Origin: Candidatus Saccharimonadia bacterium | Lineage (GTDB): Bacteria > Patescibacteriota > Saccharimonadia > CAILAD01 > CAZGYV01 | Assembly (NCBI GenBank): GCA_041906885.1 | Contig: JAYRII010000014.1 | Location: forward strand, 10,059 to 74,058 | DNA: 64,000 nt | Reading direction: 5' to 3' | Shown: positions 35,795 to 46,468 of the stretch, piece after piece | How the letters are laid out: every line of letters begins with the position of its first letter | How positions within the stretch are numbered: the first letter of the stretch is position 1 | Notes under the pieces: model-generated | Told to the model about the DNA's origin: nothing | What the model saw: the letters and a program-made list of their open reading frames with translations, nothing else | The model's database searches: none | Translations under genes and position numbers: made by a program

Positions 35795-35869
35795 TGTCAT
35801 CCTGAGTGATAAAGAAGGATCTTCGGTTATCAGCTTGCTAGAGATTCTTCGCTGGCGCTCAGAATGACA
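35795..35869. repeat. MITE-like palindromic repeat, copy A (TGTCATCCTGAG...CTCAGAATGACA)
   Basis: ttgtcatcctgagtgataaagaaggatct...agattcttcgctggcgctcagaatgaca: terminal and subterminal inverted repeats. Confidence 0.6.
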
Positions 35870-35939
35870 AAATTCACCAATACTATCTCTCCTCCTTAAG
35901 CCAGGGCGGGCACATAAGAACTAAGGTCAAATCTAGCTC

Positions 35940-36173
35940 ACAGTGCGAAATTATTTATCTATGTTGAAAACAAAAATAATTCCGTGAATCGAGATTGATT
36001 TGAGAGGAAAGTTTAGCAATTTTACAAACCGAAGTTAATCTACTTGCGAATACATTTACGCGAAGATTTATGAGCATGAGATTACTGTTTGCGAAATTGA
36101 GAGGATTATCCGTGCATCGGTTGAAGTTGAAAAGCAAAGCTTTTTAACGAAAACTAAAGCACGAATAGGACGC
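35940..36173 (+). repeat. tRNA-upstream conserved module (copy 2)
   Basis: cagtgcgaaattatttat...aataattccgtgaatcgagattgatttgagaggaaagtttagc...caaaccgaagttaatctacttgcgaatacattt. Confidence 0.55.
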
Positions 36174-36264
36174 GGAGAGGTGTCCGAGTGGTTGAAGGAA
36201 CTGGTCTTGAAAACCAGCAGGCCGTTTAGCGGTCTCGTGGGTTCGAATCCCACCCTCTCCGCCA
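36174..36264 (+). tRNA. tRNA-Ser (anticodon UGA)
   Basis: Acceptor GGAGAGG/CCTCTCC, anticodon loop CUUGAAA, long variable arm, CCA encoded. Confidence 0.85.
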
Positions 36265-36365
36265 GATGAATGAGAGCCACGGAAGTGGTACTTATTCATC
36301 TGGACTGGGTGTGCTTGAGAACCCACATGGGTTCGGTGAAGCAAAGCGCGCAGAACAAATCGGAT
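36265..36365 (+). repeat. tRNA-downstream conserved module (copy 2)
   Basis: agatgaatgagagccacggaagtggtacttattcatctggactgggtgtgcttgagaacccacatgggttcggtgaagcaaagcgcgcagaacaaa: near-identical to the reverse complement of 17085-17178. Confidence 0.65.
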
Positions 36366-36446
36366 TGTCATCCTTAGTGACAACGAAGGATCTGGATATA
36401 ATATGAATGCAGATTCTTCTCCGCTAGCCGGCGGATCAGAATGACA
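36366..36446. repeat. MITE-like palindromic repeat, copy B
   Basis: ttgtcatccttagtgacaacgaaggatct...agattcttctccgctagccggcggatcagaatgaca. Confidence 0.6.
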
Positions 36447-36640
36447 GAGTTATATGATTAATCTCCACCCTCTCCGCTAGATGGAAGCGACTCACGACAG
36501 TGGGTCTTTTGCATCTGTGGGTGGGATGAGAATCCACGCAGTGGGGGCGTACTGTCATGGCGCGCAGAGCAAATTATTAGTTTACTTCGAGCATGAGTGG
36601 GCGAAGAAGGCGGAGCCGCTATCCCACGCTCTTGAGCCAT
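36447..36640 (+). repeat. downstream-module-like repeat carrying a partial tRNA-Ser 3' end (caccctctccgcTag) and a cgctatccc motif
   Basis: Parallel layout to 40795-40860 (ctctccgccggatggaagcgactcacgaaagtgggtc) and to the module at 36265. Confidence 0.5.
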
Positions 36641-37081
36641 GAAAAGAGCACTGATTGCATCGATGCAAACTAAACTACACCCACAACAAGCACCAATTAC
36701 AAATAATAATTAAAGCCACAAACCAAAAAAACATACTTCTGATATAAAAAATACGCAGCTAAAAAATACTGGCTAGCAGAGACATCTCTATAAAGCAATG
36801 CAAGATAATTATTCATCTAATTAAAGCCGGGGGCGCCATGATAGGGGAGGTTGAAGCTGAGGTTAATGCATATGCATTTGACGACAGAGTAAAGAAACAA
36901 GACGAATTATGTCTAGATTTTGCAAATTTTATACAAACCAAATCGAACATAAAGAATGTTAAGGCTTGGTTGATATTATCTGAGCTGGGACATAGCTGGG
37001 AAGATTAGCGGCTATCCCACCCTTTTGCGCAGATAATATTACTTTTTGCCCTAGCTCCCTTATGCCCGCTACAATAGCATT

Positions 37082-45064: not shown

Positions 45065-45102
45065 ATACATCAGCTGGGCGAGCATCCTTCTTGACCGATA
45101 CT

Positions 45103-45381
45103 TTAGAAGCGGCTGATGACAAAATTAATAATCGAGTACGACATGATGGCAACAATAATACCGACTACAGCGTAGAGGACTGTGTCCTTAGCAGCACTGA
45201 CTGACTTTTCGTTGCCGCCAGAGAAGACGTAGCGGAAGCCGCCGATGATTAGCATGATGACAGCCGAGATACCGATCGCTAGCAAGAGAGTATTTGTGAC
45301 GATCTTAATCTGGGCCGGCAGACTGCCATTCAGGCCAGCTCCTTGACCTACCCAGTTTACCCCTGTTTCAATACTATTCAT
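45103..45381 (-). CDS. VirB2/TrbC-like pilin paralog 1 (appears to lack a signal peptide)
   Basis: LPAQIKIVTNTLLLAIGISAVIMLIIGGFRYVFSGGNEKSVSAAKDTVLYAVVGIIVAIMSYSIINFVISRF: two hydrophobic helices separated by a short loop, conserved C-terminus shared with paralogs 2-4. Confidence 0.55.
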   Translation of the reverse strand: MNSIETGVNWVGQGAGLNGSLPAQIKIVTNTLLLAIGISAVIMLIIGGFRYVFSGGNEKSVSAAKDTVLYAVVGIIVAIMSYSIINFVISRF

Positions 45382-45438
45382 GCCAATATTCTAACATGTC
45401 TAGAGATGTTAGCCGTTAAATACCTAACTAATTAAATC

Positions 45439-45804
45439 TTAGAAACGACCAATGACAAAGTGAACAATGGCATAAGACAATATGGCCACCACCAAACCGA
45501 TGACGGCATAGAGAATGGTGTCTCGAGCTGCACTAATGTTCTTTTCGTTACCTTGAGAGAGGGCAAAGCGAAAGCCGGCAATAATAATTGCAATAATAGC
45601 CACTACGCCGATCATGATCAAGATAGTATTTACGATGTTGGTAATAGACGGCCCGAGCTCAGTCGGAGTGCCAGCTGACTTGGCACAATTCGCGCCACCA
45701 GATGCACCATCAGAAACACTATCGCAAGCCGCTAAAGCTCGCTGGCTTAAGCCAAAAAGGGCAGCACCGGCAAAGGCAGCCAGAGTATTGAGGTGCTTTT
45801 TCAT
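45439..45804 (-). CDS. VirB2/TrbC-like pilin paralog 2
   Basis: Signal peptide MKKHLNTLAAFAGAALFGLSQRALA, variable Cys-containing segment, then the conserved pilin core ...IAGFRFALSQGNEKNISAARDTILYAVIGLVVAILSYAIVHFVIGRF. Confidence 0.6.
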   Translation of the reverse strand: MKKHLNTLAAFAGAALFGLSQRALAACDSVSDGASGGANCAKSAGTPTELGPSITNIVNTILIMIGVVAIIAIIIAGFRFALSQGNEKNISAARDTILYAVIGLVVAILSYAIVHFVIGRF

Positions 45805-45825
45805 GAAAGCCTTAACTTCCTTAGC

Positions 45826-46182
45826 CTAGAATCGGCCGATTACAAAGTTGACAATAGCATAAGACATGATTGCCACCACGATACCGATGACGGCGTAGAG
45901 AATGGTGTCCTTAGCTCCACTAATGGCTTTTTCATTACCTTGCGAGAAGACATAGCGGAAGCCACCGACAATCAGCATTAGTACCGCAGCCACACCAATG
46001 ACTAGTAAAAGAGTGTTGGTTATAGCCGTAATCTGAGATGGCAGGTCGCCATTTAGTCCGGCACTCTGGCCGGCATAGCCGGCACCTTGCTCTATTTCAC
46101 TGTTGGCGGCCAAAGCTCGCCCAGCTAACATCGGCAGCGTCACACCCGCCGACAAGCTTACTTTTTTTATTAATGAAACCAT
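45826..46182 (-). CDS. VirB2/TrbC-like pilin paralog 3
   Basis: Signal peptide plus core LPSQITAITNTLLLVIGVAAVLMLIVGGFRYVFSQGNEKAISGAKDTILYAVIGIVVAIMSYAIVNFVIGRF. Confidence 0.6.
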   Translation of the reverse strand: MVSLIKKVSLSAGVTLPMLAGRALAANSEIEQGAGYAGQSAGLNGDLPSQITAITNTLLLVIGVAAVLMLIVGGFRYVFSQGNEKAISGAKDTILYAVIGIVVAIMSYAIVNFVIGRF

Positions 46183-46296
46183 TTCTTTGTCTCCTTCTTG
46201 TAGGATTTTTTAGATTAATAATAAAAACTTGGCTTTATTGTAAACGAAATTCTCAACCATGACAATTACTATTTTGCTTATGTTCTGGTTTGGACA

Positions 46297-46468
46297 TTGT
46301 ACATCCTGAGTTCTCTCGTGTCATCTTGAGCCCACCTATTGTCATCCTGAGCGCAGCCGAAAGATCTCAGACGAAGAATGACTGTAGATTCTTCCTCTCC
46401 AGTCAAGATTCAAAATTACAACCCACTCCGTCGTCCTGATCCGACAGCCGACGGACGATTCAGAATCT
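46297..46468. repeat. MITE-like palindromic repeat, copy E (tandem degenerate copies between pilin genes)
   Basis: tgtacatcctgag..gtcatcttgagc..ttgtcatcctgagcgcagccgaaagatctcagacgaagaatgactgtagattcttcc...cgtcgtcctgatccgacagccgacggacgattcagaatctg. Confidence 0.55.

Follow-up and report, generated by a model that had tools for sequence, protein, structure and literature searches.

The Neisseria Transformation Sequence (NTS; CGTCATTCCCGCGMAVGCGGGAATCYRG) has been generalised as the Ssn-related motif (SRM), and Ssn, a GIY-YIG family of roughly 94 amino acids (aa; cd10448), is encoded by genes that usually have SRMs on their flanks (Chenal et al., Nat Commun 2025, PMC11893778). Here, we analyse a group of small palindromic repeats in a 64,000-nucleotide (nt) stretch of DNA from a Candidatus Saccharimonadia bacterium (contig JAYRII010000014.1, positions 10,059 to 74,058; hereafter the window, in whose numbering all coordinates without a contig handle are given). 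We find that these repeats are very probably SRMs, that is, oriented single-stranded DNA (ssDNA) hairpins of about 28–36 nt that serve as recognition sites of small GIY-YIG ssDNA nucleases. The window is best described as holding a cluster of SRM-type hairpin repeats of a motif class outside the published search string, mostly arranged in doublets that resemble REPINs (hairpin-forming doublets of repetitive extragenic palindromic (REP) sequences), and its copies are a further case of a known system, not a new transposon.

SsnA binds the NTS hairpin solely as ssDNA, and not as double-stranded DNA (dsDNA), as RNA or on the reverse strand, and its cleavage site lies a few nucleotides upstream of the hairpin; the three nucleotides 5′ of the palindrome are needed for cutting, and the C just 3′ of the palindrome for binding (PMC11893778). 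In N. meningitidis, SsnA lowers transformation by NTS-containing DNA about 5-fold (PMC11893778). The NTS, whose internal palindrome is the dRS3 core (ATTCCC-N8-GGGAAT), is intergenic and clustered around membrane and surface-protein genes, NTS-ssnA-NTS being the usual architecture, and the authors note both that this layout is like that of an insertion sequence (IS) and that it invites an analogy with REP sequences and their tyrosine transposases (RAYTs), mobility not being demonstrated there (PMC11893778). The published degenerate SRM string, HGTCWYN(0-2)YYVSBRHN(0-5)WNVSBRGN(0-2)RNCYNB, is based on 29 genomes from 4 phyla, and 81% of genomes with >200 SRMs encode an Ssn homologue and 19% do not (PMC11893778).

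The window units share with this system an oriented hairpin of about 28 nt, an HGTCAT head, a palindrome that starts with ATTC or ATCC and a C directly 3′ of it, such that the NTS CGTCATTCCCGCG..CGGGAATC compares with TGTCATTCTGAGCG..CGAAGAATC in the window. The nucleotides critical for SsnA (the GTC head and the 3′ C) are conserved in the window units, which are intergenic and clustered around particular genes, including pilin and surface genes. In the motif class as a whole (tested family-wide, not in this genome), a plus-strand unit and a minus-strand unit enclose a single-domain GIY-YIG gene of roughly 94 aa. Whereas the NTS has a GC-rich CCCGCG stem, the window class has an AT-rich outer stem, tandem G.A mismatches and a GCGNAGC or palindromic loop, and it is found across many environmental phyla as well as in viral contigs.

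Other described repeats are further away. The dRS3, NIME and Correia repeats of Neisseria are likewise abundant, intergenic and placed beside variable surface-protein genes. Correia elements are 100–150 bp long and resemble miniature inverted-repeat transposable elements (MITEs), with 26-bp terminal inverted repeats (TIRs) and a TA duplication, whereas the window units have neither. The ends of IS200/IS605 and PATE-type elements are similar in their subterminal ssDNA hairpins, strand-specific recognition and lack of a target duplication, but they are asymmetric and come with TnpA(Y1) and TnpB genes, and no such genes are associated with the window motif class.

A family of oriented hairpin units

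Allowing at most one mismatch, TGTCATYCTGAG has 12 matches in the 64-kb window against 0.40 expected, a number reached by 0 of 100 shuffles, and all of them are confined to 35795–46351; the tails GAAGGATCT and GAAGAATCT are found beside the heads. A covariance model (R1), trained on units from unrelated metagenome contigs and on no window sequence, finds nine window units at E ≤ 2e-4, all inside 35792–46370, and nothing significant in the rest of the window nor in 18.5 kb of added flank. A repeat finder groups the copies into families D7 and D11 and pairs I2, I4, I5 and I8. The dispersed palindromic family with shared termini proposed in a preliminary description of this DNA is thus borne out by the enrichment of TGTCATYCTGAG and by model R1, and the family is real.

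Its five loci, all present on direct reading, are intergenic: two simple convergent doublets at A (35795–35869) and B (36366–36446), a single unit with a compact element at C (43471–43566), a head-only module with a convergent doublet at D (44927–45064), and head-only modules with a doublet and a variant unit at E (46297–46468). Loci A and B bracket a tRNA-Ser(TGA) gene (36174–36264), C and D a solute-binding-protein (SBP) gene (43576–44883), and D and E three of five T4SS_pilin paralogues, which agrees with the copies having been placed beside a tRNA, around the SBP gene and inside the pilin array.

The conserved entity is not an element of 75–170 bp, as first described, but an oriented hairpin unit of about 28–36 nt with the layout (T)GTC - A N4 GAG - loop - CGA N4′ T - C(T). 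It consists of a single-stranded 5′ head (T)GTC, a stem A-N4-GAG / CGA-N4′-T that contains tandem G.A mismatches, a variable loop that is often itself palindromic and commonly a GCGNAGC mini-hairpin, and a 3′ C(T); nine window units read (T/C)GTCAT, stem and ATC(T). The termini taken for the TIRs of a transposon are the 5′ heads of two independent oriented units, which also occur singly (43471) or as heads only (44927, 46297 and 46319). At loci A, B, D and E, the units form convergent doublets with heads outward (TGTCA...TGACA) and 17–53 nt between them; the four share one asymmetry, TCCT in the left arm and TTCT in the right, and their similarity ends at TGTCA...TGACA. As the left arms are of an ATCCT...AGGAT type and the right arms of an ATTCT...AGAAT type, each arm is self-complementary and arm-to-arm pairing is mismatched at those positions.

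Covariation and gene association were evaluated in the best 80 of 558 metagenome relatives, picked by similarity of the GIY-YIG protein described below alone, so that N4 was not pre-selected. N4 and N4′ form four Watson–Crick pairs in 192 of the 210 units in these loci, compared to 30% when partners are exchanged between units, and five N4 types are frequent (TTCT, TCCT, CCCT, TGCT and CTCT). Across the family, GTC has a T before it in 183 of 192 units, and TC(T) comes after the stem. For the proposed 7-pair helix in a 72-sequence alignment, 97.8% of cells are paired and five of the seven pairs show double-sided changes, values that 0 of 500 shuffles attain, with slid registers at 17–51%. The window copies therefore belong to this family by sequence and by structure, and the covariation supports two small unit hairpins rather than one long hairpin. 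The commonest loop, GAG-CGNAG-CGA, holds GCGNAGC flanked by G.A/A.G, and GCGNAGC with tandem G.A pairs is a hallmark of unusually stable DNA mini-hairpins. Of the earlier proposal that each element folds into one long hairpin, the folding of three composites stands (A, B and C fold as ssDNA beyond shuffles, z −3.5 to −3.8), whereas composites D and E do not fold beyond shuffles and covariation backs the unit hairpins only. At the gathering threshold, Rfam (4227 models) finds only tRNAs in the window; at E ≤ 10, it finds nothing relevant over the repeat regions, and eight repeat-rich loci elsewhere have no match.

The unit family and its partner gene

The pattern GTCATYCTGAGN{8,14}GAAGRATC matched 108 stretches of viral contigs in IMG/VR and at least 120 stretches in a collection of species-representative genomes, these from >15 phyla among the matches listed, with roughly 1e2 chance matches possible by our estimate in the 596-Gb collection. 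The listed genome matches include Chloroflexota, Acidobacteriota, Bacteroidota, Clostridia, Omnitrophota, Melainabacteria, Synergistota, Gemmatimonadota, several proteobacterial classes, Fibrobacter, Helicobacter and groups of the Candidate Phyla Radiation (CPR; Komeilibacteria, Gribaldobacteria and Parcubacteria). The matched loci show doublets, head-only modules, palindromic loops and up to 7 copies per 2 kb, which is beyond what chance can give, and the strict unit pattern, with perfectly complementary N4, has 484 matches in 1.95 Mb of fetched loci for an estimated chance expectation of about 0.1. Doublets are mostly convergent with heads outward (57, compared to 14 divergent and 6 tandem; median gap 24 nt). 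Head-only modules lie 18–27 nt upstream at 66 of 628 units, which makes the compound copies of the window typical of the family. A literature search for the sequence of the repeat returned only unrelated primers or nothing. The viral-classed contigs with units (>100; L013–L120, for example L066 8546–8927, L111 and L031) also encode terminase, portal and capsid, and L066 carries five tandem doublets; phages might make use of SRMs or merely have them as passengers.

Clustering of open reading frames (ORFs) around the genome matches gave one informative cluster, a protein of ~95 aa encoded directly beside units in L175, L181 and L185; otherwise, phage structural genes dominate the viral loci and housekeeping genes the genome loci. 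The associated protein has PF01541 (GIY-YIG) as its single domain and is 92–96 aa long, and an alignment of the three cluster members was the query for the metagenome scan. A strict unit lies within 200 nt of the GIY-YIG gene in 66 of the 80 protein-picked loci, and with model R1 the remaining 14 are positive too (unit ≤200 nt in 80/80). The usual layout places a plus unit 10–90 nt upstream of the start and a minus unit 5–110 nt after the stop, in a module of 360–550 bp. The family-wide partner of the repeat is thus a roughly 94-aa Ssn-type GIY-YIG nuclease and not a DDE or Y1 transposase, and where the preliminary description proposed a search for a full-length IS with the same TIRs, the only unit-bounded gene across the family is this nuclease.

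Members of the GIY-YIG set share 43–60% mutual identity along the whole protein, and the tyrosines of GIY and YIG as well as R, H, E and N are invariant. The same protein is 44–58% identical, again along its entire length, to proteins flanked by repeats of the published string. Repeats that fit this string, including CGTCATTCCCGCGAAGGCGGGAATCCAG, the literal NTS (L339–L341), flank more distant homologues on viral contigs; L181 and L340, the latter with literal NTS repeats on its flanks, are 44% identical (E 8e-30). The homologue in L328 is flanked by the CTGAA/TTCAG sub-type found at 43471 in the window.

Individual copies in the window

Doublet A consists of a TCCT-class unit (TGTCATCCTGAGTGATAAAGAAGGATCT) on the plus strand (35795–35822; R1 25.0 bits, E 1.6e-4) and, after a 19-nt spacer, a TTCT-class unit (TGTCATTCTGAGCGCCAGCGAAGAATCT) on the minus strand (35842–35869), which is the top R1 match (45.2 bits, E 5e-10), fits the strict unit pattern and has the family structure as its predicted ssDNA fold. 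The left arm of doublet B, also of the TCCT class and on the plus strand (36366–36393; R1 28.5 bits, E 1.8e-5), starts 102 nt downstream of tRNA-Ser(TGA) and is 86% identical to unit 35795 with 8 nt of upstream flank included (repeat family D7). Its right arm on the minus strand (36411–36446; R1 30.7 bits, E 4.7e-6) is of the TTCT class with GAT for GAG and a long palindromic loop (TCCGCCGGCTAGCGGA), and folds as ssDNA into the family structure at −6.9 kcal/mol.

Locus C opens with a single plus-strand unit of the CTGAA/TTCAG class (TGTCATCCTGAACTAGTTTCAGGATCT; 43471–43498; R1 25.3 bits, E 1.3e-4), 47 nt past the HSP20 stop, with a perfect 8-bp stem and an ssDNA fold z of −3.4. Element C follows, formed by a TCCT-class left arm (43516–43543, plus strand; R1 26.4 bits, E 6.8e-5) that fits the strict pattern and, at its right end, a degenerate minus-strand unit (43537–43566) that overlaps the tail of the preceding one; its head (TGTCATCCTGAGCCCAC...) is perfect (0 mismatches), its R1 score is 10 bits (E 1.9), and the composite folds with z −3.8. 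As originally noted, the inverted termini of this copy (43517–43527 / 43555–43565) are perfect over 11 bp; its subterminal repeats pair with one G/A difference.

At locus D, a plus-strand head-only module (TGTCATCCTAAGCCCGTCAG; 44927–44946), recognised by its head match, lies 21 nt upstream of the next head. The doublet has a TCCT-class left arm that fits the strict pattern (44948–44975, plus strand; R1 26.5 bits, E 6.2e-5) and, beyond a 53-nt spacer, a right arm of the TTCT/GAT class with the loop TCCGGCAGCTGTCGGA (45029–45064, minus strand; R1 29.3 bits, E 1.1e-5), which by alignment is a close copy of unit 36411–36446. Locus E begins on the plus strand with two successive head-only modules (46297–46338; TGTACATCCTGAGTTCTCTCG and TGTCATCTTGAGCCCACCTAT, at 46297 and 46319), again head matches, and continues with a TCCT-class left arm that has one stem mismatch (TGTCATCCTGAGCGCAGCCGAAAGATCT; 46339–46367, plus strand; R1 27.9 bits, E 2.6e-5 for 46316–46370). 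The right arm (46386–46419, minus strand) is decayed, with an intact tail AGATTCTTC and a degenerate head TTCAAAATTACA; its R1 match (8.4 bits, E 5) is not significant alone, and we assigned it through positional homology with doublets A, B and D. A last variant or decayed unit (CGTCGTCCTGATCCGACAGCCGACGGACGATTCAGAATCT; 46429–46468, plus strand) takes part in the inverted-repeat pairs I4 and I8, has no significant R1 match and folds at −8.6 kcal/mol (z −1.8). The head-only modules and extra units at loci C, D and E confirm that some copies are compound or tandem. Units 36411, 45029 and 46429 share a sub-variant with a TCCGNCAGC..CGGA loop and GAT replacing GAG, which indicates within-genome copying.

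Strain comparison and recent turnover

Six contigs with an identical SBP are 100% identical to the window. The informative relatives are L321 (SBP 80% identical), L323 and L324 (SBP 77% identical), which have the same gene order. The spacer between pilin and SBP genes measures 219 nt in the window, where it holds doublet D, compared to 47 nt in L321 and 61 nt in L323, both without a unit; the pilin–pilin spacer with cluster E measures 310 nt, compared to 218 nt in L321 and 125 nt in L323. Doublets are absent from both orthologous spacers in these two relatives, and we conclude that they were gained, or lost, recently. After HSP20, one unit stands at the same position in the window, L321 and L323, each time with a different interior, and over 14–16 kb of synteny this weak unit is the only one that the relatives carry, against six or more in the window. 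The target-site duplications that the preliminary description proposed to look for at the copy ends are visible neither at the window doublets nor at 14 gene-carrying modules.

Between SBP and HSP20, L321 (11283–11680) and L323 (11283–11857) contain a conserved non-coding block of ~250 nt that looks like a structured RNA; it is absent from the orthologous spacer of the window and has no Rfam match at E ≤ 0.1.

Weighing the assignment to Ssn-related motifs

Several observations weigh against the assignment to SRMs. The published SRM string has 0 matches in the window, and the consensus of the CTGAG class, to which the window units belong, also fails it, whereas the NTS passes. The associated proteins have no NCBIfam match, and their nearest PDB entries are only UPF0213 proteins. 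Searches by tblastn and profile HMM find no Ssn/GIY-YIG gene in the 64-kb window, its 18.5-kb added flank or the syntenic loci of two relatives. Several window copies are visibly decayed (43537, 46386 and 46429), nearest-neighbour ssDNA folding does not set most single window units apart from shuffles (z +0.2 to −1.6), and neither insertion boundaries nor a target site can be defined across the window and its relatives, as the intergenic flanks are too diverged to align.

The published string is a search heuristic, not a functional definition, and given the 29 genomes of 4 phyla behind it, its failure marks the CTGAG motif class as lying outside that sample; membership among SRMs consequently rests on protein homology and shared architecture. 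With the thermodynamic folds of single units mostly unremarkable, the structural case rests on covariation. That no cognate transposase accompanies the copies in the window was part of the preliminary description, and the GIY-YIG gene is absent there as well; with none in the sequence examined, an Ssn encoded by this genome is hypothetical, and its repeats may be relics.

It is possible, though in our judgement less likely than not, that the units are genuine SRMs orphaned in a genome that lost or never had Ssn, inert and of consequence only as substrates for homologous recombination. The absence of an Ssn gene from about 82 kb, the decay of units 43537, 46386 and 46429, the stem mismatch in 46339 and the 19% of genomes with >200 SRMs that have no Ssn homologue (PMC11893778) all fit such relics. 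Against this, in eight or nine units the stem is intact and both the GTC head and the 3′ C are retained, the absence of the doublets from close relatives points to a recent gain and thereby implies recent activity, and the sequence examined is only about 10% of a typical small genome.

The hairpins might instead act mainly as RNA, in the form of terminators, attenuators or 3′ structures that stabilise mRNA, with the nuclease link being secondary. All copies are intergenic, several closely follow stop codons (that of HSP20 by 47 nt, that of the SBP by 10 nt on the other strand and that of a pilin by 39 nt), and the unit at the HSP20 3′ end is kept in three diverged strains. We nevertheless regard a main role as RNA as unlikely, while a side effect at that level is conceivable, because no T-run follows the hairpins, a terminator scan coincides with units at only two marginal matches, no Rfam match appears even at E ≤ 10, units point either way relative to the genes beside them, and GCGNAGC loops with tandem G.A pairs are typical of DNA mini-hairpins. 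The characterised Ssn, moreover, does not bind the RNA form (PMC11893778).

Very improbable is membership among REP sequences, bacterial interspersed mosaic elements (BIMEs) or REPINs moved by a RAYT (an HUH/Y1 tyrosine transposase) encoded elsewhere in the genome. The resemblance is close: a hairpin that is short and oriented, a conserved single-stranded motif on its 5′ side, intergenic positions, inverted doublets as the commonest form, sub-variants within a genome, a single small enzyme gene flanked by the repeat and a non-autonomous population of copies, an analogy that the Ssn paper itself draws (PMC11893778). The head, however, is GTC(A) and not the GTAG that REP elements carry. ORF clustering over the 120 listed genome loci found no recurrent Y1 transposase, GIY-YIG and not Y1 is encoded at 80/80 loci of the associated gene family, and REP families are lineage-specific, whereas the window motif spans many phyla; mobilisation by the nuclease is, besides, demonstrated for no SRM. 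REP/RAYT is the closest functional analogue, and membership fails on head sequence and enzyme family.

Least probable of all are the classical MITEs of the preliminary description, deletion derivatives of a DDE insertion sequence whose TGTCATYCTGAG ends would be TIRs recognised as dsDNA and whose insertion would duplicate the target: inverted termini, small size, presence or absence among related strains and a window free of transposase genes would suit them, but no duplication is conserved at the window doublets or at the 14 gene-carrying modules, the supposed TIR also stands single, in tandem or as a head only, the stem beside the head covaries, which argues for recognition of a hairpin rather than a duplex, the sole gene consistently enclosed by units is the GIY-YIG nuclease with no parent IS and transposase, and one motif is common to >15 phyla (among the matches listed), unlike the species-specific MITE, REP and Correia families. 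What remains of the original MITE or REP/Correia-like label is an architecture that is REP-like and sometimes compound, not that of a classical MITE. The term 'non-autonomous' is a fair analogy, as the convergent doublets look like unit-gene-unit modules without their gene, except that the partner is not a transposase.

Neighbouring features

The five tandem T4SS_pilin (PF18895) paralogues (45103–47708; 92–301 aa), two of whose spacers are occupied by hairpin clusters, adjoin TrbL_3, PrgI, TraC-like and VirB4-like genes, and the host also has FemAB genes. With contigs of relatives that suggest small genomes, this gene content points to a probable CPR/Saccharibacteria-type (Patescibacteria) host. 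Upstream of one pilin gene, a promoter-like site (TTGTCA-17-TACAAT; 46265–46237, minus strand) is conserved in the relatives. Just upstream of it (46324–46296, minus strand), ATGACA, the reverse complement of a repeat head, forms a second −35-like hexamer, by which repeat heads could incidentally provide promoter-like elements. The right end of the window (62088–64000; continued in L351 1–9161) adjoins recF-dnaN-dnaA-rnpA-yidD-yidC, a putative replication-origin region, which puts the repeat cluster roughly 18–30 kb from dnaA.

Positions 35276–40814 hold three tRNA-Ser genes and a tRNA-Arg gene, at least four additional fragments of ~30 nt that resemble the tRNA-Ser 3′ end (..GCCGCTATCCCTCCCTCTCCGCCA; at 35509, 35673, 37005 and 40784) and repeated leader modules of ~100 nt upstream of the tRNAs. 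A 125-nt stretch is duplicated in tandem with 95% identity (35412–35536 / 35576–35700). These features could be att-site remnants or pseudo-tRNA cassettes, and the only Rfam signal in the tRNA-cassette region consists of sub-threshold 'sX4' matches. Between the tRNA cassettes (37082–39813) lie two adjacent ORFs (630 aa and ~252–264 aa) with no Pfam match on record; L324 has adjacent genes of 630 and 260 aa, also without Pfam matches, in a different neighbourhood, as possible counterparts. The strongest terminator-like hairpin of the region, a 29-nt near-perfect inverted repeat followed by a T-run (40658–40717), comes after tRNA-Ser(CGA) and is unrelated to the SRM repeat family.

Implications

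If the SRM assignment holds, a convergent doublet may be viewed as a unit-gene-unit module minus the nuclease gene. By homology with the characterised Neisseria and Wolbachia systems, DNA in a single-stranded state (incoming transforming or conjugative DNA, or DNA under replication or repair) would let a cognate Ssn bind the folded hairpin in a strand-specific manner and cut a few nucleotides 5′ of the GTC head, and such cuts would fragment ssDNA around the flanked genes and modulate recombination there. The doublets may spread within genomes non-autonomously, as REPINs do, and in this lineage they would have been gained recently around tRNA-Ser, the SBP gene and the T4SS-pilin paralogues.

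A wider picture, speculative and rather unlikely to hold in full, would join these elements. The CTGAG class would be a large SRM class missed by the published string and present in >15 phyla, among CPR-type bacteria and on phage contigs; the convergent doublets of this class would form a replicating REPIN-like entity, mobilised in trans by Ssn and recently expanded in this small-genome, episymbiont-like bacterium around tRNA-Ser, the SBP gene and the T4SS-pilin paralogues, where ssDNA cut sites would limit or shape recombination of incoming ssDNA at surface-protein loci. Ssn would then be the first enzyme of the GIY-YIG kind with a proven role in driving a population of REP-like repeats, and for the transformation of CPR bacteria, SRMs would present a practical barrier, or a handle.

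For the SRM assignment itself, the finding places an unexplained repeat of a poorly understood small-genome bacterium in a system with a known biochemical partner, the site-specific ssDNA nucleases. The Ssn system probably reaches further than estimated so far, because the published string fails to capture a motif class that is very widespread, and doublets without a gene that come and go among related strains bear on whether Ssn/SRM modules are REP-like elements that are mobile and domesticated. In a host that does encode the nuclease, incoming ssDNA would be fragmented at these sites around the pilin and transporter genes, which would be relevant to the genome plasticity and genetic manipulation of such organisms.

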